64,000 nt of DNA from Candidatus Alkanophaga volatiphilum (lineage in GTDB: Archaea > Halobacteriota > Syntropharchaeia > Alkanophagales > B39-G2): the NCBI GenBank assembly GCA_029259545.1, contig JAPHEE010000003.1, forward strand, positions 10,049 through 74,048. The letters run 5' to 3'. Shown here in pieces: positions 6,849 through 55,466 of the stretch. The first letter of the stretch is position 1. Every line of letters begins with the position of its first letter. A program made the translations under genes and the position numbers. The notes under the pieces are model-generated. The model saw only the letters and a program-made list of their open reading frames with translations, did no database searches and was not told the origin of the DNA.

Positions 6849-7468
6849 CTCACATCGCCAAGTCGGGTGCCGGTGTTCGGAGGCGGATCGTCAATAGCGA
6901 CAAGCCGCTCCATCTTCTCGACGTTGATGTTGCCCCCTTCTGGTAGGGGGCTGCCGATTCGCAGTATCGGCGAGCCGTTGAATTCAAAGAGCGAAACATT
7001 GAAGCTATATTCAAGCTCGCTGCCGTCCACCTCGACGAAAAGCCCAAGCTTTCGGTGTATGTGCTGTTCTTCTGAGATGTTCGTTTGATTATTCCACCAC
7101 TCCTGTAGCTTCTCTATCTTCTCCCACGAAAGATTGTTGGGGATTATATCCTCGTAGGACGACCAAGTCGGAGCTCTTGATGCAAGCCCCACTCTCTTAA
7201 CGTTGCCTAAAACCGAGCTCACTGCTGTCAGGTTGCTGAAATTGAGGTTTTTATGCCATTCTGAAGTTATGAAGCCGCTGACATTGTAAATACCGCCGTC
7301 TTCGACGAGAATCGAGCTTGTTCGGTAAGCAACGGGCTGGAGATCGGAGGCTCTCGTCTGCATGGGCGTGAAGAGGGTCGGCAGGAGCGATACGAGAAGA
7401 ACTAATGTGAGCATAAAAACAGCGATGCCTGCGAGGAAATCCGTGCTCACTTGCGCCTTTTTTGTCAT
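6818..7468 (-). CDS. prepilin-like protein (class III signal peptide)
   Basis: KKAQ|VSTDFLAGIAVFMLTLVLLV. Confidence 0.55.
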   Translation of the reverse strand: MTKKAQVSTDFLAGIAVFMLTLVLLVSLLPTLFTPMQTRASDLQPVAYRTSSILVEDGGIYNVSGFITSEWHKNLNFSNLTAVSSVLGNVKRVGLASRAPTWSSYEDIIPNNLSWEKIEKLQEWWNNQTNISEEQHIHRKLGLFVEVDGSELEYSFNVSLFEFNGSPILRIGSPLPEGGNINVEKMERLVAIDDPPPNTGTRLGDVRCAKLVVYVW

Positions 7469-15287: not shown

Positions 15288-15659
15288 TCGGTAAGATTCA
15301 CCAGAAGCCGTATATTTCGCATCACAGGGACGATGTCCGTCGAAACTCACTCCTCCGAGTATCTCCCCGCCCTGAGTCACCAGAATAAACGTTATCCACG
15401 GGCTCGAACCTTATTCCCCTCGGCAGGCTTCCTATCTCTCGTATTCTGCGTCTGAATAGCATACCCAATAAAGTGGGGGTCGTTAAATAAAAGTAACCCC
15501 ATTTTTGTGCTGAATAAAAATGCAATTTCAAGATAGGCTTCCTGCGACAATTGCGGCAGTTTTAAATAGGGCTTCAAATGACTACGAGATGTCCTCCCCT
15601 GACTCCATCCGTAATTTTTGGATCAGGATTTGGGCTGGGCAAGATGGGGTGAAGCGTAT

Positions 15660-16523
<864 letters not shown>

Positions 16524-16553: not shown

Positions 16554-17896
16554 TCAAAGAAGGAATTTCAGAAGCACACTTGGCGACAGTGCTTTTCTTT
16601 TCGGCAGAACGTTTGTCACGACGCCGCAGAGTAACTCTGCCAGTCTTTCGTCCATGGACGCATTTTTTATTATCCTATCCAGCAATAAGGGGCGTCTTAC
16701 GAGCCTTCTGAGGAGTGACCTCCGCCCTCGCTTAGCAAGGGGCTTCCCGGAGAGGTTGGGGGTGGTTCAGACGATCGGGCGGGGTCACCGCAGCCCTGCC
16801 CGCAGGATATACCCACGGCTCGCTCCGACTCGCATCACTTCGGAAAATTAACTGCCTCCACCCCAATCATCCCCGCCCGCAGGACGAACCTTCTTAGCGA
16901 CTGAAGGTAAAGAGTGCCTGAAGTCTGCGGCGAATTGTTTTTTCCATGCCGTGTCGTATTCTTTCAGCGTCCTTAGACTCGTGTCCTCAAGCTTCAAAGC
17001 CTTCGCAGCGACATCAGTAGCAAGCTTCCCGCTTTCGAGCGCTGCCCTCGCCGGTAAGGGGGTTCACAAAGGACGCGGCGTCCCCTATGAAGAGAATTCC
17101 GTTCGTGGCGGCTGCCGCCCGTCGGGACGAGCCAGCCTCTCGCCTTGCCTGCTTTGCGTCCTTTAGCCTTGTGGCACCGGTAATAAACCTTTTAAAGTAC
17201 GCGTTCAGGTTTATCTTCCTGTGCGCCGGCATCACGCCCACACCCACATTCGCCATGTCGTCACCAATCGGGAATATCCAGCCGTAACCTGGCAGCAACT
17301 TTTGCTCATAATGAAACTCAACGAAATCAAAACTTTCAACGCCGGAAAAGTATGCACGGACCGCGACGCCTACGTTGGCTCGCCTTTTTCTCTCCTCTTT
17401 TAACAGGTACCTCGTGAGTGCTGAAAATGCGCCGTCAGCGGCGATCACTACTTCTGAATTTATTTCAGTGATGTTACCATCATGTTTGCCCCTGACGCCC
17501 ACGACGCTTTTATTTTTCAACAGAGGCTCTTTAACCAGAACTTCGAAGAATTCGGCGCCCGCATCAACGGCATGACTTCGTAAAATCTCGTCGAATTCCA
17601 TTCGTGGAGCTACATAGCCGTAGGGTCTGTCTTAGGACTTTTTGCGCTCATGCGGTAGCCGCTCGGCGAGAATATGGTTATGCCATCGGACTTTTTGAAA
17701 CCGCTTCGCTCAATGGTTCCAAGGAGCCGCATTTCCTCTAGCGTCTTCAGCGAGCGTGGAGAAATGGCGTCGCCGCACACTTTTTCCCGCGGAAAACTTC
17801 TTCTATCAACTAGTAGAACGTCATAGCCGGGTCTTGCGAGGAAGTGTGCGCAGGCGCCCGCGGTCCAGCGCCGACGATGGTGACGTCCTTTCGCAT
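16554..17896 (-). pseudogene. geranylgeranyl reductase family (FAD-dependent) gene with at least 3 frameshifts, interrupted by a MITE-like insertion
   Basis: MRKDVTIVGAGP then shift; ...PYGYVAPRMEFDEILRSHAVDAGAEF; ...FIGDAASFVNPLTGEG then shift to IALESGKLATD...; tail LVRRPLLLDRIIKN downstream of the inserted repeat; begins directly after the hmgA stop. Confidence 0.7.
16715..16912 (+). mobile_element. MITE-like repeat copy A (about 198 nt, ACCTCC...GGAGGT-type terminal inverted repeats) inserted in the GGR 3' region
   Basis: homologous to 42542-42780 (GTGACCTCC...CTTAGCGACTGRAGGTAAA ends, shared internal blocks GGGCTTCC, GGTTGGGG, CGCAGGATRTACCCACGG, AAATTAACTRCCTCCA, ATCATCCCCGCCC). Confidence 0.55.
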
Positions 17897-20884: not shown

Positions 20885-20990
20885 CCTGCGGTGCTTCGTG
20901 CCTCGCCCTTTGGGTTACTTAACAGGTGGATATTTGGTCCGCTTACGCTCGCCCAAATTTGCTCCGCAAACTTTACATATCCCTAACATT
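20885..20990 (+). repeat. direct repeat copy 1 (island boundary / duplicated upstream region)
   Basis: CAGGTGGATATTTGGTCCGCTTACGCTCGCCCAAATTTGCTCCGCAAACTTTACATATCCC, about 85% identical to 23374-23434, with weaker similarity extending 40 nt upstream. Confidence 0.55.
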
Positions 20991-21066
20991 AGGTGAAACG
21001 ATTTCCATCGCCTCGAAAAGATTTAAAATTAAGGAAGTTAATTTTTCTATTAACAGGGTGAGAAGA

Positions 21067-21375
21067 ATGCTGACTTCAGAAGAGATATTGAGGAAAATAG
21101 AGGAAAATAGAGATAAAATCAAAAGATTTGGGGTTAAAAGGATAGGTTTGTTTGGCTCATATGCAAGGGGGGAGCAGAGAGCAGAGAGTGATGTAGATAT
21201 AGTGGTGGAATTTGAAAAGGGAAAGGCGACCTTTGATAATTTTCTGAATCTGGCAGAATATCTGGAAGAGCTTCTGGGTAAAAAAATTGATCTGCTCACA
21301 AAGGAGGGTGTAAGAAGTATAAAAATAGAACACATCCGAAAAGAAATTGAGGAGAATGTGATCTATGTCTCGTAG
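21067..21375 (+). CDS. mntA: nucleotidyltransferase antitoxin (MntA-like, minimal nucleotidyltransferase)
   Basis: GLFGSYARGEQRAESDVDIVVEF motif; start moved to internal MLTSEEILRK because the ORF-track start lies inside the direct repeat. Confidence 0.7.
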   Translation: MLTSEEILRKIEENRDKIKRFGVKRIGLFGSYARGEQRAESDVDIVVEFEKGKATFDNFLNLAEYLEELLGKKIDLLTKEGVRSIKIEHIRKEIEENVIYVS

Positions 21376-21607
21376 AGGCGATAGAGAGTTCCTGCTTGAT
21401 ATACTTGAAGCATGTAACAGAATTATTGATTTCACAAAAGACATGTCATACGATGAATTTGCAGAAGACATAAAAACACAGGATGCGGTATTACGAAACA
21501 TAGAGATAATAGGTGAGGCTGTTAAGAATATATCGGATGAACTAAAAAACAGACACGGCGATATAGAATGGAAAAAGATTGCAGGATACACTTCTATTTC
21601 GGAGTGA
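21365..21607 (+). CDS. hepT: HepT-like (DUF86) HEPN toxin
   Basis: 80 aa overlapping mntA by 11 nt; HEPN-like helix pattern with R-x4-6-H region (NRHGDIEW). Confidence 0.65.
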   Translation: MSRRGDREFLLDILEACNRIIDFTKDMSYDEFAEDIKTQDAVLRNIEIIGEAVKNISDELKNRHGDIEWKKIAGYTSISE

Positions 21608-21813
21608 ATTTAGATATAGTCTGGGACGTTGCCAGAAATAAAGTTCCGGTATTGAAAGATAAGATTTCAAAGTTATTATCGGAACTGGAGTGAAAAAAGG
21701 GAAATTAAAGTATGCAATGGTGTGCACTCTTGCAACCCGAAGGGTTGCTTGGGGCTAACGCCCTCACTCATGAACACAACGAAACGGTTGTCGCTCATAC
21801 AGCAGTTGCTAAA

Positions 21814-22242
21814 ATGGAGAAGATCTCCTTATGGCAGATCGGAAAAGAGAAAGTTATTGAAATGGATACAAAATTAGCCAATAATTTGATTTCAACTCTT
21901 GAAAACGTGAATTTACAAGGAACGTGTGCCATATTTGAAGAAGACGTTGAAAAACTGAAGCAAGAAGGCAGGATAATTGAAATTACATTCAGAGAGCCGA
22001 TCAACGTAACGATAAGCCAATGGATTAAACCAGAGGATAGGAATCACATTCCAATTAATGCAAGCGGTTACAGGATTCTGACAAACGTTGAAAAAGCAGT
22101 ATTTGTCTTGAAAGGAGATTACGAAGGAAATATACTAACAAAAAGTGCCGATGTTAAAGGATATGGTTGCTGGGCAATCTCAAAAGATGGTGAGATAGAC
22201 AAAAATTGGATAAGTGAGGTTGAAAAGGAGGTTGAAAAATGA
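21814..22242 (+). CDS. hypothetical protein
   Basis: AT-rich ORF; start moved to internal MEKISLW; no recognisable domain. Confidence 0.4.
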   Translation: MEKISLWQIGKEKVIEMDTKLANNLISTLENVNLQGTCAIFEEDVEKLKQEGRIIEITFREPINVTISQWIKPEDRNHIPINASGYRILTNVEKAVFVLKGDYEGNILTKSADVKGYGCWAISKDGEIDKNWISEVEKEVEK

Positions 22243-23291
22243 GAAAAAAGTTAATAGCTCTCAGCATTCTTTGCATCCTCGTAGGATTCGTCGGTATAAC
22301 CATTAATCACTTAAATTCTGATCAGATTTACACCTGCATTTCACCGAGCGCTTATGGCTTGCCTTTATCCAGCTTGTGGAAAACTGTTTTGGAAAATGCT
22401 GGGGTGGAAAACGAGACAGCCGTTTTACAGTGGCTTTACGTTAAGATAGATAGAGATGGGAGAGTTGAGCACATCGTTTTGCAGTTCTCCGGAACTTTCG
22501 ATGGAGAGCCGAGGTGGTATCAGGTTGAGGTCTCTTGTGGAAAGGTGAGGTGGCACTCGTGGAAAGCTGAGAAAGTTGGCGAAGGCTTGCACCCCTTAAC
22601 CCTGTTCAAGGAGATAGAGAAGCTCAACCTTAGAGAAATACCTTCTGGCGAGAACGGTATTACCATCGACACAGCTCCGATATCGGGAAGCGTTGGATAC
22701 GAAGACAAGTATTCCGACATCTACCTTCTGAAAAATGGCGTGCTAATCCGATTGAAGAGGATAATCTTTGATAGCGACATACCTTGGTATCCGATTGGGA
22801 TTTGCAAGAGGGAAAAATACAACGCATCTGTAGTCGAAGCCAACAGAATTGAGGTTAGCAAGAATGTTGTCATCAACTTAACCAAGGGAAATAAGGAAAA
22901 CCAGTGTATCGTGATTTTCATCCCCCAAGACTTGAGCAAAGCTAAAGTCGTTGAGTATAGAGAAGGTTTGATGACACCACCACTCCAGAAGCTTGAGGAG
23001 GTATCAAGACAACATCCAATAGTTAAAAAATACCTTGAAATGCATCCAAGTGCAACATATTACGTTGAAATGGTATATCTTACATCTGAGGGCTTAGTTT
23101 ACCAAGTTGACGAACAATGGAGGATAAAAGATTTTGAAAGCGTTAGTAGTGCCGGTAAACCCGCAGATGGTAAAGATCATTACTGCTGGGTTGTTCACTG
23201 GCACGATCCTACGCCAGGAGTTGGCATAGACCATATTGTTGTCTACATTGATAGAGACACCTATGATAGCGTGTTTGTCCAAGAAGGGTAA
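22239..23291 (+). CDS. hypothetical membrane-anchored/secreted protein
   Basis: 350 aa, N-terminal TM/signal MRKKLIALSILCILVGFVGITI; start overlaps upstream stop (ATGA). Confidence 0.5.
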   Translation: MRKKLIALSILCILVGFVGITINHLNSDQIYTCISPSAYGLPLSSLWKTVLENAGVENETAVLQWLYVKIDRDGRVEHIVLQFSGTFDGEPRWYQVEVSCGKVRWHSWKAEKVGEGLHPLTLFKEIEKLNLREIPSGENGITIDTAPISGSVGYEDKYSDIYLLKNGVLIRLKRIIFDSDIPWYPIGICKREKYNASVVEANRIEVSKNVVINLTKGNKENQCIVIFIPQDLSKAKVVEYREGLMTPPLQKLEEVSRQHPIVKKYLEMHPSATYYVEMVYLTSEGLVYQVDEQWRIKDFESVSSAGKPADGKDHYCWVVHWHDPTPGVGIDHIVVYIDRDTYDSVFVQEG

Positions 23292-23334
23292 AGGTGTTGA
23301 AAATAAAAAGAGGAAAATGATAGGCGGGACTTCG

Positions 23335-23441
23335 TGAACTCTCCGCTTTGCTTCGGTGCCAACACTCGGACGACAGGTGGATATGTGGCTTCGCTACGCT
23401 CACCCAAATTTGCTCTGCAAACTTTACATATCCCCAGAATG
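23335..23441 (+). repeat. direct repeat copy 2
   Basis: matches 20885-20990 (see copy 1). Confidence 0.55.
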
Positions 23442-23470
23442 TTAGGCAAAATGCTTAAGGTGTAGAGAAA

Positions 23471-29771: not shown

Positions 29772-29906
29772 ATGAGAATGGCTGTTTTGTGTGAGTTATG
29801 CGGTAAAAGTGAGGCTATATACGAGTGTAGTGAGTGCGGTGCGAAAATATGCGACGATTGCACGAAAGAAGTGTCCTATGAGGAGTATCATCCCGGTATC
29901 GAATGA
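29772..29906 (+). CDS. small zinc-ribbon protein (about 44 aa), possibly longer via a frame change
   Basis: MRMAVLCELCGKSEAIYECSECGAKICDDC; an adjacent frame downstream encodes ...KKKLCLKCFEE. Confidence 0.3.
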   Translation: MRMAVLCELCGKSEAIYECSECGAKICDDCTKEVSYEEYHPGIE

Positions 29907-30004: not shown

Positions 30005-31636
30005 TTGCAAAATGAGGTCTCTGAAGAATCTGAGTTGATAGCAACCGTTGGGAAGACCTCTGTGAAAATAAAAGAAGTAGTTAGGGACGCCCGTGGCATA
30101 GAAGAGGTTGTGAAGCTGGCGATCGAACATCCGGACTTCGGCTGTCGGAGCGGCGGCTGCAGCAGGTCGAGTGCCGCCTCCGCATATACCCGTCGGCGAG
30201 GGATCTCAAGGATTTCTCCTCGGCAGATACTCGCCGCTGCATGTTCCTCAGTCGGAGACGTGCACGGACTGCTCGCTCGGACCTTGCGACCTCAGCACCG
30301 AGAGGGGCGCTTGCGGCTCGGACATGCGGACGAAGTGCGCAAGGGACAGCCTGCTCGCAGCGTGTCGTGGCGCCTCCCAGATGATCTCGCACGCCCGTGA
30401 GCTCCTCGACGAAGCGCTTAAGCGCTTCGGCAGAGACGAGAAAATAAGCCATGGACGCAACGTCAGATACCCGTCGATATGCACGATGCTCTTCACCGGA
30501 AAGCCGATATATACGCTGGACGACGCCGATGACGCCCTAAAATATGCGGAAAGGCAGCTTTCTGAACTTCTGGCGGCAGCGACGGCGCCTGGTGAATTGG
30601 ATGTTCTTGACCTAGAGTGCAAAGCGATGCATGCGGGCTCGATGTTTTACTTGCGGCGGAGGTGGCGGAGCTCGTCAAGGAATCCTGCTTCGGGCTTTGT
30701 AGCGCGGCTGAACAGGACCTCGTAGACCTTCCGAACTTCCCGCACTTCATAGAGCGTGGCGTCGGCGCCCTCGACCTCGGAAAGCCCGTCATTCTCTTCC
30801 TCGGAAACTCGTTCCTCGCGGGCATAGAAACCATCGAACTTGTTAAAAAGCGGGGGCTCGAAGACGAAATTCAGATCTGCGGCGTCGGGCAGATGGGCTT
30901 CGACCTCGGCAGACGTTATGAGCGGGTGAAGCATCTTGGCGGCGCCCTGAAAGCGTTGAGGGTGGTACGTGCCGGCGTCGCCGACGTCATCGTCGTGGGC
31001 GAGCAATGCGTCCACCTTAACTTGAAGAGGCGAAGAGGGCGAGAACCGCCGTAATTGCCGTCTCGTCATCAGCATGGGGCTTGACGACATGACCGGCGAG
31101 GAAACCTCGAAGATCGTGGAAATGCTAGTAGGTGGCGAGGTGACAGGCGTCCTCATCCTGAATCCAGATAAGGCGGCGGAGGTCGCCATCGAGACCGCAA
31201 GGGCGCTCTCTAAAGGGAGGGAGAAAAGCTTATGCTTCCAAGACTCAGCGACGCCGCCCGCTGCAATGGCTGCGGCGTATGCGACGACGCCTGCCCGAAT
31301 GCTCTTGAGGTCTCGGAGGCGGTACTCGCAGCAAAGGGCGGCGACGCCGAGAAACTTAAAGAACTTTACGACAGCTGCTGGTTCTGCGCGCGTTGTGAAG
31401 GCGTCTGTCCTGAGAACATACCAATAATGAGCCTGATCCTGAGCGCCGCCAAGGACAAAATGCGAGCGGAGCGCTTCAAGATGCGACCCGGCAGGGGTAC
31501 GCCTGTTATCGAGTATAGGGATGTCGCCTACGCCTTCGGCTTCGGGACGGTTTCCGGAATGGTGGCGATCATAGGCTGTAGTGCATACCCGGGAAGCGAG
31601 CGGGATGTCAGCTACATGACGAGCTTGTGGATATGA
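30005..31636 (+). pseudogene. cdhA: CO dehydrogenase/acetyl-CoA synthase alpha subunit (CdhA) remnant: N-terminal about 470 aa equivalents with at least 4 frameshifts; C-terminal half absent
   Basis: pieces in alternating frames: TCTDCSLGPCDLSTERGACGSDM (CODH CxxGPC motif), ADVIVVGEQCV, and 2x[4Fe-4S] RCNGCGVCDDACP...CWFCARCEGVCP ferredoxin insert. Confidence 0.7.
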
Positions 31637-32406
31637 ATTATCTTGTACTGACCGCAGGTTGTTGCGCGGCGGACATCGCATCCTTCTACGGCTGTACGCT
31701 CTGCCAGAGCTTTGCGCCGAACCACTGCTGCGTGATCACGCCCGACCGTACGCCGTTCTGCGGCGTTCTTAATTGGCATAACGCTCGTGCGTGCCTCGAC
31801 GTCGACCCCATGGGCTACTGCTTCGTCATTCCGAAGGGTGAGTGTTTGGACCCCGACGTCGGATGCTACTCTGGCGTCGAGAAAGCAATCTACGAACGCT
31901 CGAACCGCACGATAAAGCGGGTGTACTTGTACTCAACAATAAAGTACCCGATGACATCTTGCGGCTGCTTCGAGATTCTAGTGTTCTACATTCCGGAGGT
32001 TGATGGTCTCGGCATTGTGAACCGCACCTACAAGGGCAAGACGCCTTTGGGCGTGCCGTTCTCGACGCTTGCGGGCATGTGCGGCGGGGGCGTCCAGTAT
32101 CATGGCTTCTGCGGCGCCTGCGTCCTTTATCTCAAAAGCCCGAAGTTTGCGCAGGGCGACGGCGGCTGGGATCGTGTCGTCTGGATTCCTAAGGACCTGA
32201 AGATGAAGATCGCCGACGCCATCCCAGAGACGCACTTCCATCTCATACCAACCGAAGAGGACGCCGTCGAGCCCGATGAACTCAAGGAGTGGCTGAAGAA
32301 GGTCGAGCACCCCATAGTGAAGAAGTTCTGGAAAGACGGCGAGCCGCAGCCAATACAGCTGCCGGGCCCCGGCGAGCTATGGCCTGAAGACAAGGAAGAA
32401 GACTAG
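31627..32406 (+). pseudogene. cdhC: acetyl-CoA decarbonylase/synthase beta subunit (CdhC) C-terminal half only, fused to the cdhA remnant
   Basis: FYGCTLCQSFAPNHCCVITPDR, TSCGCFE (A-cluster Cys-Gly-Cys), FAQGDGGWDRVVW; N-terminal about 220 aa and cdhB missing. Confidence 0.7.
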
Positions 32407-32892
32407 CTAGGGGCATCGACTCAGAAACTCTCTTATCTTTACTTCCTGCGCCTTTTTCGCATTTTCGAGCTTTTTGGCAAGCTCTTCACTCAGGGCAACG
32501 CCGGTCACCCCCCTTAAAATCTCGACGTAAGAAACAAGTTCTTTCTCTAGGAGCAGCTCGTAGAAGCGTAGGACTGCTCGCTCCTCGACAGCAGGGGCGA
32601 CTGCTGTCAGTTCGTGCAACACCCTTATCTTTTCCACGCTTTCCTTCGGATTCGTCGCCATACGAGCAAAGAGTTTTGCATAAGCGTTTTGGATGACCCC
32701 GTCCTCGAGCTTCGGCAGGAAGCCTATGGACTTCACGAGCCTAGCAACGCCGTGCACTAAACACTTTTCAAGAAGCCGTTCACACTTCTCTCTGACGCAT
32801 GCCTCAAGTTCCCGCCTCAATTTCTCACGGGCGGCGGCGTCCGCCTCTGCCTCTAACGCCTCTTTTAAAGTCAGTATCTCTTCAACCTTCAT
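32407..32892 (-). CDS. hypothetical helical protein
   Basis: start moved to MKVEEILTLKEAL; overlaps upstream stop (ATGA). Confidence 0.4.
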   Translation of the reverse strand: MKVEEILTLKEALEAEADAAAREKLRRELEACVREKCERLLEKCLVHGVARLVKSIGFLPKLEDGVIQNAYAKLFARMATNPKESVEKIRVLHELTAVAPAVEERAVLRFYELLLEKELVSYVEILRGVTGVALSEELAKKLENAKKAQEVKIREFLSRCP

Positions 32893-33287
32893 CACCCAAA
32901 GTAAGGAAAGCTTCGTTTTTTGTAACATTCCTCCTTGAAAGGGCAGCCCTCCGCAGTCCAGCATGCAAGATACGCTTCTTCGACGTACTCGTCCTCCTCA
33001 TCGTCGTAGTCCTCGAACACGAATCGCGGCTCGAAGCACTCGTAGCTATCCCAAGGGCGGATGATCCTGCCCCGGCAGTAGCCTACGCTCCCCTTCTTTA
33101 TCCCTTCTATCAGCTCCTTTAACGTCTCATCGATCTCGTAATCCCACACCGGCACCTCGACACGCTCCCCTAGGATCTCAACCACAACGACCTCATCGCT
33201 CTTCGTCCGCTTAATGTCGAACATCGCCTTCCTCACAACAGCGTGTTCCCAATGCTTGCACGAATAGCAGCAGTGCATCTTTCTCAC
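32892..33287 (-). CDS. hypothetical Cys-rich protein
   Basis: 131 aa with 9 Cys (HCCYSC, CRGR, CWTAEGC). Confidence 0.4.
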   Translation of the reverse strand: MRKMHCCYSCKHWEHAVVRKAMFDIKRTKSDEVVVVEILGERVEVPVWDYEIDETLKELIEGIKKGSVGYCRGRIIRPWDSYECFEPRFVFEDYDDEEDEYVEEAYLACWTAEGCPFKEECYKKRSFPYFG

Positions 33288-34075
33288 CCTAAGCTTACGT
33301 AGGAAAATATCTTTTCTTTGATCTCGTATATGCGTTCTACGGCTTCGCCACCGACGTCTATCGGCGCCTTTCCCTCCATGTCTGCCCTTATCAGGGTTTC
33401 ATCGTAAGGGATGACGCCAATGACCGGTATCCGCAGCTCCTGTTCGAGTTTACTTCTGAGAGTTTCGACGACCGCCTCGTCGCTTGCCTTGTTTATGATC
33501 GCTGCTATGTCGTTCACGCCAATGTCTGCTGCAAGCTTTTTGATGCGTTTTGCGGTCTCAACGGAACGCATTCCGGGCTCGACAACCGCCAGCATTAGAT
33601 CGACACCCCTTGCGGTGCCGCGTCCTAAATGCTCGATGCCTGCCTCCATGTCGAGGATCACAACCTTACCCCTGAAGATCACATGCCGGAGAAGCGCCCG
33701 TAAAAACGCATTTTCAGGACATACGCAGCCGCCCCCGCCCTTCTCAACAGTGCCCATCACGATAAGACGGACGCCGTCCGGGGCGACGGCGCTGTACTTC
33801 GCAACGACATCGTCCACCTTTGGATTGAGCTTGTAGACGCCACCGTAGCCGCCAGTCCTTTCGTATATCAGGTCCTTAAGCTCCGAGATGGGCGTCGGCA
33901 CCTCCGAAACGCCAAGCGCCGACGCGAGATTCATGGCAGGGTCGGCATCTATGGCGATGACCTCATAGCCGTCCCTCGCAAGCGCCCGGGCAAGCGTGCC
34001 CGCAAGCGTTGTCTTCCCAACGCCACCCTTCCCTGAGATCGCTATTTTCACGCCTCTTGCCTGCATGGCTACCAT
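33284..34075 (-). CDS. cooC: CO dehydrogenase maturation ATPase CooC (MinD/ParA family)
   Basis: GKGGVGKTT P-loop and GGGCVCPENA CxC motif. Confidence 0.8.
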   Translation of the reverse strand: MVAMQARGVKIAISGKGGVGKTTLAGTLARALARDGYEVIAIDADPAMNLASALGVSEVPTPISELKDLIYERTGGYGGVYKLNPKVDDVVAKYSAVAPDGVRLIVMGTVEKGGGGCVCPENAFLRALLRHVIFRGKVVILDMEAGIEHLGRGTARGVDLMLAVVEPGMRSVETAKRIKKLAADIGVNDIAAIINKASDEAVVETLRSKLEQELRIPVIGVIPYDETLIRADMEGKAPIDVGGEAVERIYEIKEKIFSYVSLG

Positions 34076-34247
34076 ATTTTTAGTCTATAACTTAAGTTTC
34101 AATCAGAATTAGCTTGAGTTCTCTTTTTAAAGAACTCGTACGTTTTAGCCATGTTACTCACAGCAGAGGAGACATCTTTGCTTGCACGCAGCGGTGGTAA
34201 AATCGTATTGATGGAAGAAGCACATGGAAACATAGAGCGAGAGCACA

Positions 34248-34288
34248 TTTAAGAATATTGTTGCTGCTAATTCCCGCCTTTCAAAGGT
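34248..34288 (+). promoter_or_regulatory. TATA-like promoter motif (copy 2 of 2)
   Basis: 24-nt exact match with 4371-4394 plus TTCAAAGGTGC; a second canonical TATA (ATTATTTATAAAGG) at 34309-34322. Confidence 0.35.
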
Positions 34289-34490
34289 GCAGCAGGGGAG
34301 GCGGCGGGGATTATTTATAAAGGGCGTGTATTATGCGTTGCTCGCGGTGCGGGTTGGGTCGGGCGCCGAAGTGAAGCCTCGACACCGCAACCTCTGCCCG
34401 TGAGGCTGAAAGAGCCGCCGGGCAAGGCGAGGATGAACTGGAAACCCCCTCAGAATGCCCCTTCAGCGAGGGGAGGCGGTCACAAATCAC
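34289..34490 (+). ncRNA. candidate structured non-coding RNA (unknown class)
   Basis: about 200 nt GC-rich non-coding sequence with helix-forming segments (GCGGTG...CACCGC; CCCTCAGAATGCCCCTTCAGCGAGGGGAGG resembles the copy-1 hairpins). Confidence 0.2.
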
Positions 34491-34950
34491 ACCTCATTTG
34501 TGAATCACTTATGAAACCTGAATCTTGCCAGAGAACGGACACGTATGCACGTCTTTTTAACGTTCCGTAAAGACTTGCTGTTATTTTTCTATGGCTGGAG
34601 TGTATATGAAGGCTGGAATTGCGGAGGTCGTGATGCGGCAATTTGCGGGCTCTGGTTAAGGATCCACGTGGGTCCTATCCGGTTTCCATCTGCTCCATAA
34701 AGCATGTTTGTTACCCTGCAAGTGTGTTAGAAGTAGCTTGTCATTGCGGTGAAGTGTTGCGCTACACAATATTAACAATGTTGTAGTCCCTCCCATCACA
34801 ATAAACGTATTGCTTTTAGATGGGCATATTTGGGCGTTAATGCATCGCTGCAAAGCCCTTGCGAGCGTTTCTAATGACCTGTACGAAAGCAATTGGGCCA
34901 ATGAAAAACTCATCCCCGAAGCTTTTAACATGCCGACGCAAAATTTGTCT

Positions 34951-36896: not shown

Positions 36897-37019
36897 CCAA
36901 GGTACTTTGGGCTAACATTTACAAATTTCGGCGGGAGAAAGCTTATGTTTAACATGAGATGAATCGCCGTTGGGTTTATACATTCGTTTTGCAATTTTGC
37001 TATTAGCGAGGCTGCGGGT

Positions 37020-37640
37020 ATAGCCTGCGGGCAGGCTGCGGTGAGCCGCTCGCCGTCGTGAGGCTCCCGGCTTCAGCCGTGGAGTAGCTCACAAAGTGCG
37101 GCACGAAGCTGCACTCCCCTCCGGCTTGGCACACAGCCCCCGCCCACACCATATAAGCATGGGCCCGTTTAAACGCCGTAGCTCCGAGGACGCCAATGAG
37201 GGGAGCAGCTGGGGATGGAGGCAGTTTGGAATCTACCTTGATCTCACTGCTTGTTGGGACTTTCGGGCGGGAAACCCTTTAGGTTTGCGTTGGTCTGGGC
37301 TCGGGGACGGACGCCTTTTCACATCACTGGCAACCGACTTCAGCACCCCCCGGCGCTCCGGTCTAAGGAGGCACTTTATCTTCCCGTTGCTTGCAAGACC
37401 CTGGGGATACAGGGGAGGCGGGTGGGGAAGTTTAAATACTTCAGTCTACTGAAGATTGGAATGTTTCTGATGACGCAAGGGGGAAGAGATGGGCAAATAG
37501 CCCATGCCTTAAGAGGCATGGGATGGGGGAGCTGTGAACCCCCCCGAATCCAGATGAAGCCTTAGCCGTAAAGGCAGGTGGAACGGGAGAAGCCCCGTCC
37601 GTAGGGCGGGGTAGTTCACCCTTTCTACCTTTCTATAGCT
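37020..37640 (+). repeat. 620-nt GC-rich non-coding composite repeat block (X-motif plus MITE-like segment)
   Basis: no ORF of 60 aa or more on either strand; 37115-37150 CTCCCCTCCGGCTTGGCACACAGCCCCCGCCC matches 61239-61270; 37385-37440 resembles the MITE left arm. Confidence 0.45.
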
Positions 37641-37725
37641 TTGAGCGCTGCCGACGACGCTTGACACAGGGAGGCTTCAGATGATTACTGTGTCATCCAA
37701 ACGTCAATCCGAATCTCTAATGCAG

Positions 37726-39535: not shown

Positions 39536-40754
39536 TGATGGAAATAACAAAGACCATCAGGTGTAAACTCATCGGACTAACGAAGCGAAAGTTAGACTTA
39601 ATCGAGAATACGACAACTTCCAACACTACTTGAAGACAGGAGAAGATAGAGGCGTTTATTCTGCAACGAAACAGCAAGGGAAAAGAGCCTATCGAAAAAT
39701 TGACCTTAAAAAAGAATATCCTCTTGTCATAAGAAAAGACCTGATGGATATTTGGAAGACTGATAACAAGCTCGCCAAATACTGGGCTCGCATTCCCGTT
39801 CACGGTGTTAGAGGCGGTATTAAGGTTGCTTTAGCTCATCAACCCTTCAACTTCGAGGAGTGGGGAATTTGTGGCTCTAAACTCGTTAGAAAGAATGGTG
39901 AGTTCTACCTCCATGTGACGGTCAAAAAGAATGTTGAACTCAGGAAGGAATACTCATCCATCATAGCAATCGATATGGGAGCGAGATGGGTGGGGGTGTC
40001 GGTGGCGCCCCACCGCAGTAAGCCAAAGTTCTACGGCAAGAGGGTGAGAGAGGTTAGAGGAAAGTATTTCCGGTTGAGGAGGAAGCTTGGAAGGGAGAAG
40101 AAACTACTGGCGATAAAGAGGACAGGACATAAGGAGAAGAGAGTTGTGAATAATGAGCTACACAAGATAGCAAAGGAAATTGTTGATGAAGCTGAGAAGC
40201 ACAACGCAATAATTGCAGTCGGTAATTTGAATGGGGTTAGAAAGAACAACAGGGGAAGAAAAGTGAACAGGAAAGTTAATTCGATGCCTTTCTACAAACT
40301 GAAGGAATATATCAAGTATAAAGCCCTTGAGAGAGGAATTGCAGTGATAGAAGTTCCAGAATTTAACACATCAAAGCAATGTTCTCGTTGCGGCTCGATG
40401 CGAGCTGAAAGACCTTCTCAAGGATTATTCATCTGCAAGGATTGTGGCTACCAGATTAATGCCGATGTGAACGGAGCTAAAAATATATTGAAGCGAGCCC
40501 AGGGCTATATGCTCTGGGCAGGGGCTTCTGTGACCCAGCCCGAAGGGGGGAGCAGGTACATCCTGCACACTCCCCAACCTCCCAAGGCTTCCGGTGGAAG
40601 CCCTGACTTTAGTCGGGAGGAGGTCACGAGGCTTAACTACCAGTCTATCGTAAATGCGACGAATCCTTTGCCATTTGAATTTAAATCCAGCAAGAACGCC
40701 GTTGTAAACAAAAAAGTTTTTATACGTATAATCCTCGCTTTCTCTTGTGAGTAA
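39536..40754 (+). pseudogene. tnpB: IS605/IS1341-family TnpB (RNA-guided nuclease family) with an N-terminal frameshift
   Basis: MMEITKTIRCKLIGLTKRKLDLIEN in one frame, then EYDNFQHYLKTGEDRGVY... in the ORF-track frame (39630-40754); RuvC-like and CSRCGS...CKDCGY zinc-finger motifs; no tnpA adjacent. Confidence 0.7.
40515..40627 (-). mobile_element. MITE-like repeat copy E (internally deleted, reverse orientation) inside the tnpB 3' end
   Basis: CTGCACACTCCCCAACCTCCCAAGGCTTCCGGTGGAAGCCCT...GGGAGGAGGTCAC is the reverse complement of the copy-B left arm. Confidence 0.45.
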
Positions 40755-42342: not shown

Positions 42343-43310
42343 GTGAGCCGTAAGGTTGGAATATATATCCGGGTTAGCACGCAGGAGCAAGCTGAAAGCG
42401 GTATTAGTATCGAAATACAACGCTCCTTACTCTACAAGTTCTGTGAGCTGCACGGCTGGGAAGTTCACAAAGAATATGTGGACGCCGCCAAGAGTGCGGC
42501 GACCATAGAGCGAAAGGCGTTGCAGGAGCTTCTTGAAGACTGTGACCTCCTCCCCTGCTCACGCAAGAGGGCTTCCACCGGAAGCCTTGGGAGGTTGGGG
42601 AGTGTGCAGCACAAAGCTACGCTCCCCGCCGGGCGGGTCACGACGCCCCTGACCGCAGGATGTACCCACGGACTCGCCCAGACCTACATTAAACTTTCGG
42701 AGTATAAAAAATTAACTACCTCCAACCTCCCCAATTCATCCCCGCCCTCAGGACGAGCCCTCTTAGCGACTGGAGGTAAAATGGAGAAGTAGATACAGTC
42801 GTTGTGTTTAAGCTGGATAGACTTTCGAGGTCGCTTCGTGACCTGATCCTATTAATGGACGAGCTTAAAAGGTACGGCGTCGACTTCGTGAGCGTCACCG
42901 AACGCATAGACACGACAACCGCCGCCGGGAAACTCATGTTTCATATAATCGGGGCGTTTGCGGAATTCGAGCGGGAGATGACGATCGAGAGGACGAAGCT
43001 GGCGATGGACAAGAAGGTTAAGGAGGGCTCGTTTGTCGGGCGGCTCCCGCTTGGCTATCGCTACGACGAGAGCCGCCGCATAGTCCTTTCGGAGGACGCC
43101 GAAACCGTCCGCTGCGTGTTCTTTGACTTCCTCGAGACGCAGAACGTCAGTGAGGTCGCCCGGAAACATAACATGTCGAGGATGCAAGTTTACAGAATAC
43201 TTAGAAACCATTTTACGCTGGCATTGTCCACTGGCGGGACGTGGAGTGGCGGGGCAATCACCCTAAGATCATCAGCAAGAGGACGTTCGAAAAAGTCCAA
43301 AGGATTTTAA
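42343..43310 (+). pseudogene. small serine recombinase (resolvase/invertase family) disrupted by a MITE-like insertion
   Basis: N-part VGIYIRVSTQEQ (catalytic Ser)...LLEDCD, then 239-nt insert, then DTVVVFKLDRLSRSLRDL...GAFAEFEREMTIERT and C-terminal HTH; the two halves lie in different frames. Confidence 0.7.
42542..42780 (+). mobile_element. MITE-like repeat copy B (239 nt)
   Basis: the insert splitting the recombinase; ends GTGACCTCC... and ...CTTAGCGACTGGAGGTAAA; homologous to copy A. Confidence 0.6.
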
Positions 43311-43338
43311 ATTCGAGGAAGAACAGGAGCCGTAAGAG

Positions 43339-51783: not shown

Positions 51784-52158
51784 TCCGACGTTAACGGCTG
51801 ATGCTCATCTCTAAGTGCAAAGTTCGACCAATGGGCGAATTGGGCGGGTGCGTGGGTCGTAGCCAGCGTTTGTCGGGCGAGTATGATGGTGCCGAGCCCG
51901 ACGGCAAGGTTGAGCAGGCACATCTTTGAGATATTTGAATAGGCGAAGGCAATTGTTTTACTCTAATAAAATCCTCTTTTAAGAAAAGCGATGGATAATT
52001 ATGGCGAGCCTATTTGAGAAAATTCCTTGCTTATACAGGGAGGCACACTGTCGCAAGAGCGAGCCATCCACAAACGTGGAGGTCAAGATCTTCTGAGAAG
52101 CTCCCACCTGAAAGAGTTTTAGGTTACTGCTGGAAAGGTGGAAGAAAATAATTTGAAA

Positions 52159-53454
52159 CTACACGGGAATCAGCATTCTCTCCCCTCCTTCCCAGTTCTT
52201 TGAATAGCATTCGATTCTTTTAGCTTCTAGCTCGTGTTCCGCAGCTCTAATACTTATTGGAATCGAAACGGCTGGAATCTTCTTTATTTTCACTTCTCTC
52301 TTCTCCACTATTACGGGTTTTTTCTCAATGCGTTCTATTTGAATGGGCAATGCAGCTATGTAAATTGTGTTATTCGTTAACGCTACGTCTCCGATTTCTC
52401 CATTTAGAATGTAAAAATTCAGGATTTTGCCATTTTCGTCAAACATGAACAGGATGCAATTGCTGAACCAAGCTATGAAGGTTGTTTTGTCCCGTATGAT
52501 TTTTCCTTCCAACTCGTACGTGCCAGGGGTTGGATAGGTAACGTTCACTATCCTAGCCCATACGATCTCACCATCGGAGCTGAGTTTGGCTAAAAAGGGA
52601 TAATCCTGATCGTTCAAACGCTCGTGAACCAAGCCAACGACATAAACGCAATCTTCAGCGTACACGGCGTAGAGATCTACCCAATATTTCTCCACCTCAT
52701 AAAATTCTGGAACCTTTTCACCTTCTTTCTCAGCAGCTTTTCTTTTCTCCTCAGGAATTTTAACCTTAACCTTTACTTTCTCATCCGATTTTAAGCTGGT
52801 AGCCCATTCGAGTTCTCCATCCTTGTTAAGTTTGATTACACTATTCCACCTCGTTGCGTATATTCCATCCGAAACGGATATGTCATCGTTTAGGTCTCCA
52901 AATCTGTGTCCGCTCCTCCTCAACAACTCTACCGCCCAAATTACGTTTAAATCTTCATCAGTTTTGACAATTCCATCCCTCGTGTTGAGGTATAGATACT
53001 TCCCGTCGCTTTCAATGTCAAAAACGTTCAGAATGTCTTCGTAATAAACTGGAATCGGATTCTCTCTTGTTCCTTCGTAGCCAACCCTCTTTGTCACGAG
53101 ATCTTTCACCCATACAACTTTGCTGTTTCTGATCTTAACGACATCAACGCCAGCAGCGTAAATATTGCCGTTAAAGCACTTGAGAACGTTTGAAACCCAT
53201 AGACTCCCGTTCAACGTCAGATTCCAACTATTAGCTCTGATATGCGGAATCGGCGGGCTTTCCAGACTCCTGTTTATCTCCATTATGTAGATATTTTTAT
53301 CGTCCGTTGCGATATTAATTCCTTCGATCGTTTCAAACCTGTAGTCTGGATTTCCATTAAATCTAGAAGTTGTTAGGTAGTTAACAGAAAATGTTACGGC
53401 AAATGTTGCAGCTGCAACTATTGCCAACACTAATAGCCTATTCACCTCAAACAC
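52159..53454 (-). CDS. membrane-anchored PQQ-like beta-propeller repeat protein (lower-GC gene)
   Basis: N-terminal TM, repeated ...DG.I.W...-type blades. Confidence 0.5.
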   Translation of the reverse strand: MFEVNRLLVLAIVAAATFAVTFSVNYLTTSRFNGNPDYRFETIEGINIATDDKNIYIMEINRSLESPPIPHIRANSWNLTLNGSLWVSNVLKCFNGNIYAAGVDVVKIRNSKVVWVKDLVTKRVGYEGTRENPIPVYYEDILNVFDIESDGKYLYLNTRDGIVKTDEDLNVIWAVELLRRSGHRFGDLNDDISVSDGIYATRWNSVIKLNKDGELEWATSLKSDEKVKVKVKIPEEKRKAAEKEGEKVPEFYEVEKYWVDLYAVYAEDCVYVVGLVHERLNDQDYPFLAKLSSDGEIVWARIVNVTYPTPGTYELEGKIIRDKTTFIAWFSNCILFMFDENGKILNFYILNGEIGDVALTNNTIYIAALPIQIERIEKKPVIVEKREVKIKKIPAVSIPISIRAAEHELEAKRIECYSKNWEGGERMLIPV

Positions 53455-53502
53455 CTCACTACTTATTTCTGACCGACAATGTGATTTTTCGTATCCATGG
53501 TA

Positions 53503-54246
53503 TCACCTTCCAATTACTATTATTTCATCAACTGTTTCATCAACCCTTTCCTTGCCTTGATTCCAATACAGATATACAATGCTGACTCGAACTCCTTTGC
53601 AAGCCTTAAACCCACCAATATCTATTGCATTATCCTCCCATGCAAATCCTTCCAATGAAAGGGATTCACCAGCAGCCTCAGAAGCAACGAAGAATGTGTT
53701 TTTATAGCGGGAAATGTCGTGCGAGCTTAACAGCTCTTTCAATTCCTCATCTGTAACATTTCTGTAATGCCATTCAATTCCTGCTGCATCTTCAGCATAT
53801 TCAGCAATTTCAAGCGAGAACGCATCTGCAGATTCGTTGTAGAATTTAAACACAATAGGTAACTCTGGCTTAGCTAGCGGATGGGCAATGACTTCAACAA
53901 AATATCCAGAAACAGAATACCCAATGTCGCAGAAATAGATTTTGCCATAGCGTTTCAATAATTCCTCAACCTTCTCTCTTCCTGCTTTCTCTTCAAGAAC
54001 TCTCTTTACAGCATCCAGAATGGTAGGATTTCCCTTTCCAAACAGCTTTTTTCCAAGTTGCTCGTAGCTGTAGGGTTGCGGTATTTCGACGATCGGAGAT
54101 TCTTTATCTTCTTCCCATACGCTTTTTAATTTTCCAGAAGGACCAATCTCGATATGAACCACATGAACTAGCTGGGTATAAGCTGCTACACCCACCACAG
54201 CCACGAGAAGTATTGGAACCACGAGTTTAAGTATTTTCATGATCAA
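53503..54246 (-). CDS. hypothetical membrane-anchored/exported protein (lower-GC gene)
   Basis: N-terminal TM MIMKILKLVVPILLVAVVGVAAY. Confidence 0.45.
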   Translation of the reverse strand: MIMKILKLVVPILLVAVVGVAAYTQLVHVVHIEIGPSGKLKSVWEEDKESPIVEIPQPYSYEQLGKKLFGKGNPTILDAVKRVLEEKAGREKVEELLKRYGKIYFCDIGYSVSGYFVEVIAHPLAKPELPIVFKFYNESADAFSLEIAEYAEDAAGIEWHYRNVTDEELKELLSSHDISRYKNTFFVASEAAGESLSLEGFAWEDNAIDIGGFKACKGVRVSIVYLYWNQGKERVDETVDEIIVIGR

Positions 54247-54272
54247 ACTAATAATTCTCTACTTAAATTAAG

Positions 54273-54575
54273 CTACCGTGAAGCCCCGATTTCACTTAAC
54301 ATTTTGCGAATATGCAAAGTTCGGCGAAGCCGAATTTGGGCGAAGCGAAGCCGTATGTTCGCTGTTAGGCGAAGTGCACTTTTCACTTCTCTATTTCCTC
54401 CTTCATATCTTTTGACAGTTTTGACAGGTAATAAAAAAGGAAATATAAGCCATGCTGGCATTGAAAGTGAAAATGGTAAAAACCAAAGAGGCAACTTTCC
54501 ATGAATCTTGCCAAGATATATTCCGAACTCCATAATAAGAAGGGAAAAAGTAAGAATGGCACTTAAACACAGCAC
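54273..54575 (-). CDS. possible small membrane protein
   Basis: hydrophobic ORF at the island edge; weak. Confidence 0.2.
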   Translation of the reverse strand: MLCLSAILTFSLLIMEFGIYLGKIHGKLPLWFLPFSLSMPAWLIFPFLLPVKTVKRYEGGNREVKSALRLTANIRLRFAQIRLRRTLHIRKMLSEIGASR

Positions 54576-54594
54576 AGCCTCAAAGTATCTGTTA

Positions 54595-55466
54595 ATCCAA
54601 AAAGTCCTCCGTGCTCGAAGCCCTGTCCCTGCTGCCCAGACCTAAAGACGTGCTTTACCCATGGGGGGACGAGAGAAAACTTCCTCGCCAGACTTCACGG
54701 AGGACGGAGCTCGCTCGTTTACGGCTACTCGGGAAAAGCTGAAATCGAGTACACCATAAACGGTCGCACTTGGGTTCTGGAGTTAACCGACGACGGAATT
54801 ATGAATCTCAAATTCGGTGAGGAGTTTGTCGATAACATCGCCGATGCCGACCTCGCATCCCTTCTGGGAATCGGCAAAGATGATTTGAGGAGTTGCGTCT
54901 TCTTCCTACCTCATCTCTACAGGGAAATGACCATCGCACTGGACAGAGAGGCGAAAAATCTGAAGAATCGAATCGTCAAGGATGAAGCCAACGTAAGGGT
55001 TGCGAGAGAGGTGAGCAAGTGCGTGGACGACGAATACACCGAAGTTCTTTGGGAGGAGGAAGGGCTCAGCCTCAGGAAGGAGTTTCCTGACAGGGGACCC
55101 CTCTACATAAAAATCGACGATCTCGGGGACGGGTTGAGGAAGGCGGTGAGGGTCATGCTCTTGTTGGAGGTGACGCAACCAAAATTAATCCTGTAGGACG
55201 ACTTCGAGGCTTCCGCGCATCCGAGCCTCGTGAAAATGCTGCTCGAATGGTTGAGCGAAAAGGACTGGCAGGTGGTCATAGCGACGCACAGCATAGATGT
55301 GCTCTGCGGACTGCTGGAGGTCGGGCTGGAGGACGCCACGGCTCTGCAGCTCAAGAAGTCGCCGCAGGACGGGCTGATCGGCGAAAAGCTGACGCTCGAC
55401 GAGCTGGAGGACGTTATCTACGCAAATCATGACCCACGCCTCCTTGCGGACGCACTGGGGCTGTGA
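54595..55466 (+). pseudogene. AAA15/AAA21-type ABC ATPase, 5'-truncated (Walker A lost), frameshifted, with an in-frame TAG
   Basis: ...SSVLEALSLL (post-P-loop helix) in one frame; ...KLIL[TAG]DDFEASAHP...VVIATHS (Walker B LILLDD with TAG at 55197-55199, and ATHS H-loop) in the frame of ORFs 54801 and 55230. Confidence 0.6.

Follow-up and report, generated by a model that had tools for sequence, protein, structure and literature searches.

The DNA analysed here, called the window throughout, is a 64-kb stretch from Candidatus Alkanophaga volatiphilum, and positions 30005-32406 of its forward strand hold what is very probably a dead and redundant paralogue, the decaying remains in the cultured strains of one of four gene sets for carbon monoxide dehydrogenase/acetyl-CoA synthase (CODH/ACS). 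No long open reading frame (ORF) is present over this region; instead, short ORFs that follow one another in alternating frames encode residues 1-568 of CdhA in nine pieces, fused directly to residues 222-460 of CdhC. The nine CdhA segments follow the frame order 2,1,0,2,1,0,2,2,1 across the three forward frames, the longest open piece being 184 codons, and an uninterrupted CdhA frame of ~780-850 codons is absent. Given that the ancestral frame contains no stop codon in any of the nine segments, all inactivation is attributed to insertions and deletions (indels). A microhomology-mediated deletion of 1975 nt fused cdhA codon 568 to cdhC codon 222, eight small indels split the cdhA remnant into its nine frame segments, and the upstream zinc-ribbon ORF and the 3' end of cdhC were each struck by one small deletion. 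The loss would have been tolerated because two complete cdhABCDE operons and an intact cdhABC paralogue remain in the genome and would cover the cleavage of acetyl-CoA for alkane oxidation.

The relic and the small ORF that precedes it are arranged along the forward strand as follows:
29772..29906, forward: truncated zinc-ribbon ORF, first gene of the module, 44 codons against 75 in the intact allele.
30005..30143, forward: CdhA residues 1-46, frame 2, ending at a 1-nt deletion.
30144..30212, forward: CdhA residues 48-69, frame 1, ending at a 10-nt deletion.
30213..30644, forward: CdhA residues 74-217, frame 0, with CTDCSLGPC and a Prismane match (3.5e-09), ending at a 1-nt deletion.
30645..31020, forward: CdhA residues 219-342, frame 2, with ADVIVVGEQCV, ending at a 4-nt deletion.
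31021..31068, forward: CdhA residues 345-360, frame 1, ending at a 4-nt deletion.
31069..31225, forward: CdhA residues 363-413, frame 0, ending with a 2-nt insertion, AA (31224-31225).
31226..31618, forward: CdhA residues 414-545, frame 2, covering the 2x[4Fe-4S] insert and the stretch after it (Fer4_7, 2e-08), with an in-frame 3-nt deletion inside at 31506/7 and a 4-nt deletion at its end.
31619..31683, forward: CdhA residues 548-568, frame 1, which gives a chimeric ORF its starts (GTG 31627, ATG 31633) and its first 19-21 residues.
31684..32406, forward: CdhC residues 222-460, the complete A-cluster domain with all Cys ligands, closed by a new stop that results from a 5-nt deletion at 32402/3.

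The last two segments (31633-31683 and 31684-32406) form one chimeric ORF of 257 aa, deposited as MDF2956659.1, with the junction peptide MNYLVLTAGCCAADIASFYGCTLCQSFAPNHCCVITPDR. The two cdhA fragments deposited are MDF2956657.1 and MDF2956658.1, and the seven window proteins that were looked up by exact match lie within MDF2956636-667 in GenBank.

An earlier reading of the same DNA, made from the sequence without database searches (the sequence-only reading), had recognised motifs of CdhA and CdhC here, and all of those it quoted are present in their place: CTDCSLGPC in the ORF at 30171-30725, ADVIVVGEQCV at 30617-31054, two CxxCxxCxxxCP motifs at 31232-31636, and FYGCTLCQSF, TSCGCFE and GDGGWDRVVW all in the ORF at 31627-32406. 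Its statement that CdhA is spread over at least five frames holds for the spread and not for the number, since the strand has three frames, among which nine segments alternate. Pfam identified Prismane/CODH (PF03063), 4Fe-4S dicluster (Fer4) and ACS_CODH_B_C (PF19436, 7.7e-74) domains on the fragments; the N-terminal domain of CdhC (PF03598) was not found by Pfam in the relic, and 19-21 CdhA-derived residues stand in its place. In a structure-sequence search the fragments matched the CdhA chains 9c0q_A, 3cf4_A and 8riu_A in order between residues about 60 and 537 (about 60-207, 218-328 and 400-537; E 1e-16 to 1e-24), so that the remnant is colinear with solved CdhA and includes both the N-terminal Cys motif and the 2x[4Fe-4S] insert. 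The last ORF aligned to residues 181-406 of CdhC (9c0s_E, E 4e-73), and the ligand spacing of the A-cluster, C-x2-C-x8-C-x9-C, together with the Cys-Gly-Cys of TSCGCFE, can be read from it directly. Rfam and tRNA scans of the window gave no match. The C-terminal third of CdhA (569-852), required for the CODH fold and active site, has gone through the 1975-nt deletion, and the gene for CdhB (the epsilon subunit, PF02552) is wholly deleted. Judged by its sequence, the window copy is predicted to yield no functional CdhA, CdhB or CdhC.

The relic is identified as such by intact alleles at the same locus in close relatives. In the conspecific environmental contigs L002 (ERZ584659) and L004 (JGI 3300014887) the locus encodes a 75-aa zinc-ribbon ORF, a cdhA of 852 aa, a cdhB of 154 aa and a cdhC of 464 aa; a third intact conspecific allele (L093, Ga0209411) was found in a DNA-pattern scan of JGI metagenomes, and all three share about 98% DNA identity with the window. 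The syntenic locus of the sister species Ca. A. liquidiphilum (L090-L092) is also intact, with a zinc-ribbon ORF of 73 aa, and in both species the intact zinc-ribbon ORF overlaps or abuts the start of cdhA. The intact alleles share the synteny of the window, in which guaA, the zinc-ribbon ORF, cdhA, cdhB and cdhC are followed on the opposite strand by two conserved ORFs (o161 and o128) and cooC, and then by AIM24 and trpA. A global alignment of the window against L002 placed the following 11 lesions, in window coordinates:
29896/7: deletion of 1 nt, zinc-ribbon ORF, with loss of the last CxxC pair.
30143/4: deletion of 1 nt, cdhA.
30212/3: deletion of 10 nt, cdhA.
30644/5: deletion of 1 nt, cdhA.
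31020/1: deletion of 4 nt, cdhA.
31068/9: deletion of 4 nt, cdhA.
31224-5: insertion of 2 nt, cdhA.
31506/7: deletion of 3 nt, cdhA, in frame.
31618/9: deletion of 4 nt, cdhA.
31683/4: deletion of 1975 nt, joining cdhA codon 568 in frame to cdhC codon 222.
32402/3: deletion of 5 nt, 3' end of cdhC.

Across the locus 10 of the 11 lesions are deletions, and the eight small indels of cdhA comprise seven deletions and one insertion, seven of the eight shifting the frame. Microhomology at these small indels amounts to 0-2 nt, and none of them is a homopolymer slip; the 1975-nt deletion is flanked by a 6-nt microhomology, TTCTAC (31684-31689), which encodes Phe-Tyr in both genes. The sequence-only reading had the CdhA remnant run straight into the C-terminal half of CdhC, as the junction at 31683/31684 (codon 568 to codon 222) bears out, and its deletion of cdhB and of the N-terminal half of CdhC is borne out by the alignment to the intact allele; its account of the extent was incomplete, in that CdhA 569-852 has been removed along with cdhB and CdhC 1-221. 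Two groups of lesions would restore the frame, the 1-, 10- and 1-nt deletions summing to -12 and the two 4-nt deletions with the 2-nt insertion to -6, but these compensations are treated as chance. Before the frame can be regained, the shifted readings run into stops (ORFs ending at 30400 and 30725), and there is consequently no long product. Programmed recoding was likewise rejected, given that the seven frame-shifting indels are of various sizes and that a third of CdhA and all of CdhB have gone.

Given that the source is a metagenome assembly, and that other split genes seem to be present (an acyl-CoA dehydrogenase, OD814_000410-412, and in the window a resolvase and a geranylgeranyl-reductase-like gene), it might be supposed that errors of sequencing or assembly produced the frame changes and that the true genome has an intact cdhA-cdhB-cdhC. 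This is practically inconceivable. The ENA contig NODE_12 of ERZ26872905 matches the window at 100% identity over 20.8 kb, the same relic is present in ERZ26872903 with 3 mismatches in 11 kb, and the Logan assembly of the raw run SRR22214791 is 100% identical over a 3.1-kb contig that covers only part of the relic. In all, the relic recurs in three assemblies (L001, L003 and L005) from at least two different read sets, on contigs whose coverage is 230-420x according to their names. Deletions of 4, 10 and 1975 nt are no homopolymer errors, and comparison of the window with L002 finds zero indels in the 1533 nt of guaA and the 1827 nt of o161-o128-cooC (about 3.4 kb of flanking coding DNA), the indels between the two being confined to the cdh remnant and intergenic DNA; furthermore, non-synonymous changes predominate among the substitutions of the cdhA remnant. 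Subsets of the lesions are moreover found in other strains, in a series that includes a MEGAHIT-style assembly. Contig L089 (ERZ27248328), which starts within cdhA, has only one 1-nt deletion, three 4-nt deletions and the 1975-nt deletion, whereas in L087 and L088 (ERZ26872898 and ERZ26872900) the 1975-nt deletion is joined by all eight small indels of cdhA and by private upstream deletions of 9 and 24 nt; they lack the 5-nt deletion, which the window lineage adds. A nested series of this kind is to be expected when alleles that descend from a single deletion event decay step by step along their genealogy. Together with the recurrence of the same lesions in independent assemblies, it indicates that the decay is real and not a product of sequencing error. 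The outcome named in the sequence-only reading as its refutation, a read correction that restores the intact reading, does not occur, and the cluster is a genuine relic of cdhA-cdhB-cdhC with a base-by-base lesion map. The substitutions are consistent with this: the cdhA remnant differs from L002 by 9 non-synonymous and 4 synonymous changes (N:S, in the ancestral frame) against 5:33 in guaA, o161, o128 and cooC combined (Fisher p = 3e-4), and its ratio of indels to substitutions, 8:13, is about 0.6, as is that of the adjacent intergenic DNA at 34230-34913 (12:19). The cdhA remnant is under relaxed selection and evolves like unconstrained DNA in this species; cooC, o161, o128 and guaA are still under purifying selection.

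The relic being real, it could be asked whether the lineage is losing its Wood-Ljungdahl/acetyl-CoA decarbonylase/synthase (ACDS) pathway and the relic is the last cdh operon in decay, as the sequence-only reading had proposed in calling it a snapshot of that loss. Ca. A. volatiphilum is a short-chain alkane oxidiser from a 70 °C enrichment of Guaymas Basin sediment (Zehnle et al. 2023, PMC10322722), and mtd is reported missing from its metagenome-assembled genome (MAG) (PMC10322722), which would favour such a loss. However, the proposed catabolism has alkane-derived acetyl-CoA split by ACDS in a complete oxidation of alkanes to CO2 (PMC10322722), a physiology that requires ACDS. The other CODH/ACS loci of the genome, with their expression in the hexane culture (MAG 4, OD814_ locus tags, source data of Fig. 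5a of PMC10322722), are given below beside the relic:
OD814_000941-947: cdhE, cdhD, cooC, cdhC, cdhB, cdhA; FPK 467-1244.
OD814_001273-001278: cdhE, cdhD, cdhC, cdhB, cdhA; FPK 681-1072.
OD814_000198 and 000200: cdhA and cdhC; FPK 637 and 668.
OD814_000279, 280 and 281, the relic: CdhA 'Prismane', CdhA '4Fe-4S' and CdhC 'C-terminal'; FPK 324, 200 and 192.5.
OD814_000284: CooC at the relic locus; FPK 231.

The correspondence of tags to proteins follows from the addition of a constant, 2956378, to the OD814 tag number, which gives the number of the MDF accession and was checked on four genes (198, 263, 281 and 284; tag 263 is the 3-hydroxyacyl-CoA dehydrogenase at 15618-16523). The same MAG thus has, besides an intact cdhABC paralogue, two cdhABCDE operons that are complete; all are expressed above the relic, the two operons 2-6 times higher. 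The cdhD and cdhE genes and the second cdh operon that were to be sought elsewhere in the genome are there, which argues against pathway loss, and environmental strains of the same species, like the sister species, have the locus itself intact. That the relic represents the loss of the pathway is for these reasons extremely unlikely; it has no bearing on the presence of the Wood-Ljungdahl pathway in the lineage, and is the loss, in some strains, of one redundant paralogue. The intact paralogous module was confirmed by sequence (L094; zinc-ribbon ORF, cdhA of 842 aa, an ORF of 156 aa and cdhC of 488 aa; P0176 = MDF2956576.1) and also occurs in the same run as the relic, with protein identities to the relic locus of 40% for CdhA, 51% for CdhC and 42% for the zinc-ribbon ORF. 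The relic is accordingly one of four CODH/ACS loci, with a paralogue of the same type still intact. Relatives of CdhA at 55-77% identity to the ancestral module type come from Ca. A. liquidiphilum, Ca. Syntropharchaeia MAGs and metagenome contigs, and the ancestral module, as far as sequence comparison can tell, is a divergent paralogue type within the archaeal ACDS cdhABC family. A scan of contigs with conserved peptide patterns of an intact CdhC found no second copy among the matches listed, the best being 45% identical.

Several observations weigh against a locus that is wholly dead and redundant. The redundancy rests on the MAG and on the published annotation, the L094 paralogue being the only part confirmed by sequence, and the locus is not silent, given that transcripts map to the relic fragments (FPK 192-324). 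The remaining observations concern the chimeric ORF and raise the possibility that this ORF, of 257-260 aa, has been retained under selection and is expressed as a stand-alone Ni-Fe-S domain protein, only the cdhA part decaying. It keeps all Cys ligands of the A-cluster and has stayed open in each of the three relic sub-lineages (P0142, P0147 and P0151), in none of which does it contain an internal indel, against about 3.4-3.7 expected in its about 720-780 nt at the rate of the cdhA remnant (P(0) = 0.025-0.033). Across alleles the N:S of the cdhC-derived ORF is 7:20 against 14:10 in cdhA (p = 0.025); for changes derived in the relic clade the counts are 2 N : 10 S in cdhC and 10 N : 5 S in cdhA (p = 0.019), or 2:7 and 9:3 once variants also seen in an intact allele are set aside (p = 0.03). 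The ATG of the ORF shares bases with the stop codon of the fragment before it (ATGA at 31633-31636), and transcripts of the ORF are detected (FPK 192).

Such retention is nevertheless unlikely. The locus recombines, as is seen from homoplasies among the relic alleles, from an intact allele (L093) that shares 'relic' variants at 8416, 8683 and 8695, and from a variant tract of L087 (8938-9067) that mostly matches the outgroup, so that the synonymous variants of the cdhC part may be imports from intact genes. Counting synonymous changes alone, this part has diverged about five times as much as the neighbouring neutral cdhA remnant has in total, an excess that evolution after the deletion on the same genealogy cannot by itself explain. 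With recombination evident, dN/dS was not accepted as proof of function, and for the window against L002 alone the N:S of cdhC, 3:6, does not differ significantly from either class. Gene conversion from a paralogous cdhC is an unlikely source of the synonymous variants, the paralogue being only 51% identical in protein; no cdhC closer than 59% is among the matches listed, which also lack the near-identical intact allele and may be incomplete. The chimeric ORF is missing PF03598, the domain that docks CdhC on its partners, and no natural family of stand-alone A-cluster domains was found, the candidates matching PF19436 only having been rejected since they start mid-domain or at internal methionines, lie mostly on short contigs and look like truncated gene calls. 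Transcript levels of the dead fragments upstream equal or exceed that of the chimeric ORF, and transcription is therefore no specific evidence about it. A retained function for the chimeric ORF appears, from its sequence, rather improbable, and it is similarly doubtful that a newborn free-standing A-cluster domain of 257-260 aa, made in frame by a microhomology deletion, has been kept open, transcribed and under purifying selection. Were this so, the domain would be a small Ni-Fe-S protein that might, together with the retained cooC, serve the three remaining CODH/ACS systems, perhaps by carrying metal or clusters or by acting as a regulator.

Under the favoured explanation, that of a dead and redundant paralogue, the three genes listed as expressed ACDS genes in the source data of Fig. 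5 of PMC10322722, OD814_000279-281, are fragments of a dead cluster, and the functional ACDS complement therefore consists of three loci, not four. The GenBank entries MDF2956657-659 should be flagged as pieces of a pseudogene. Neither 'pseudogene' nor 'cdh' occurs in the main text of PMC10322722, and a literature search returned no paper pairing Alkanophaga with 'pseudogene'; the recognition of three annotated 'ACDS' genes as fragments appears to be new, as a correction at the level of annotation. Furthermore, intact, early-relic and late-relic alleles of one locus are public and provide a small, clean record of how unconstrained DNA decays in a 70 °C archaeon, almost entirely by deletions, with about one indel per two substitutions and no stop codon made by substitution.

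The genes that adjoin the relic on the opposite strand are intact:
32407..32892, reverse: conserved 161-aa ORF (o161), no indels against the intact-allele strains, N:S 0:6.
32892..33278, reverse: conserved 128-aa ORF (o128).
33284..34075, reverse: cooC, the Ni-insertion ATPase, 263 aa, N:S 0:6.

That cooC is intact had been proposed in the sequence-only reading, and it is indeed full length and constrained, the protein being identical across six contigs, from relic and intact-allele strains alike, with 6 synonymous changes and none that is non-synonymous. Along its whole length it aligns with CooC1 of C. hydrogenoformans (3kje, E 1.2e-51; residues 10-255 against 2-248) and keeps both the P-loop (deviant Walker A, GKGGVGKT) and the CxC metal motif (GGGCVCPEN aligned to GGSQCYCREN); its sequence predicts a functional protein. 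Beyond cooC, two non-coding stretches of about 0.8 kb each (34076-34858 and 36897-37725) are without counterpart in Ca. A. liquidiphilum, in which 92 nt separate cooC from AIM24 and 5 nt separate trpA from a helix-turn-helix gene. The zinc-ribbon ORF, of about 72-75 aa with four CxxC pairs, precedes cdhA in both of the Alkanophaga modules that consist of cdhABC only, and may serve this CODH/ACS subtype as its own small partner protein. Copies of it lie at:
29772-29906 in the window.
L002, the intact conspecific allele.
4794-5015 in L090.
706-924 in L095.

The intact allele L093 (Ga0209411_100060) is elsewhere 98-99% identical but contains a tract of about 380 nt, from the 3' end of cdhA to the 5' end of cdhB (L2rc 6996-7374), with about 60 substitutions and small in-frame indels, a pattern which indicates recombination with a more divergent cdhAB donor.

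Other parts of the window are also disrupted. A serine recombinase (resolvase) gene at 42343-43330 (forward), which is one ORF of 254 aa in the sister species, is broken into residues 1-67 (42343-42543) and 64-213 (42762-43214), with a foreign insert of about 220-240 nt between the pieces and a frameshift near 43208-43214. The insert is one copy of a repeat of about 140-150 nt whose copies, 77-86% identical, lie at 42542-42780, 40493-40627 (inverted), 16776-16911 and about 37005-37047 (inverted) and which looks like a small non-autonomous mobile element. Another copy lies in the 3' part of a TnpB (Cas12f1-like) ORF at 39630-40754; guide RNAs of TnpB are usually encoded in the 3' part of the TnpB ORF. 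Beside a copy of the same repeat, a geranylgeranyl-reductase (GGR)-like gene at about 16848-17780 (reverse) appears split over at least three frames, with pieces at 17610-17780 and 17014-17601 (Pfam GGR_cat, partial) and a possible one at 16848-16997, which no search confirmed; it is probably the third pseudogene in the 64-kb window. Two islands of low GC (37-45% against about 55% elsewhere), at about 20900-23450 and about 52000-55000, contain ORFs that gave no Pfam match in the scans made and a nucleotidyltransferase (20926-21375). The first is bracketed by direct repeats of 62-63 nt, 90% identical (20922-20983 and 23373-23434), and may be an integrated element. Elsewhere in the same MAG, the acyl-CoA dehydrogenase annotated as three consecutive genes, OD814_000410, 411 and 412, for its N-terminal, middle and C-terminal domains (PMC10322722 source data), suggests that a further gene has been split by frameshifts and that indels generally drive the pseudogene load of this genome.

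Deletional bias in the decay of prokaryotic pseudogenes was reportedly described by Kuo and Ochman, and the mutation spectra of hyperthermophilic archaea are said to be rich in frameshifts, as in the 2001 work of Grogan, Carver and Drake on Sulfolobus. Compared with the deletion-biased decay of redundant prokaryotic paralogues, the decay in the window is the same in kind, deletion-biased and indel-rich; what sets it apart from known pseudogene decay is the stepwise allelic series preserved in public assemblies. The intact alleles of the locus, which encode a CdhA of 847-853 aa, a CdhB of 148-154 aa and a CdhC of 463-464 aa, differ from the window allele by its 11 lesions, and the conspecific ones encode a CooC identical to that of the window. 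The paralogous module OD814_000198-200 has the same architecture, zinc-ribbon ORF, cdhA, cdhB and cdhC, likewise without adjacent cdhD or cdhE; unlike the relic it is intact, adjoins thiolase genes and is expressed in the hexane culture at about 2-3 times the level of the relic. Compared with archaeal ACDS cdhA-cdhB-cdhC (CdhA/CdhB of Methanosarcina, 3CF4; 9C0Q-9C0T; 8RIU), the fragments of the window are colinear and their key Cys motifs recognisable, but a continuous cdhA ORF, CdhA 569-852, CdhB and CdhC 1-221 are lacking, and the ancestral module itself differs in having no adjacent cdhD or cdhE and a small zinc-ribbon ORF upstream. Finally, the 257-aa chimeric ORF corresponds to the same C-terminal, cluster-binding part as engineered truncated ACS proteins (3GIT, without the N-terminal domain, and the A-cluster fragments 3S2X and 5GOL), matching 3git at E 2e-53 and 3s2x at E 5e-23; these are laboratory constructs, whereas the truncation in the window arose by a natural deletion, with a product and a metal binding that are putative.

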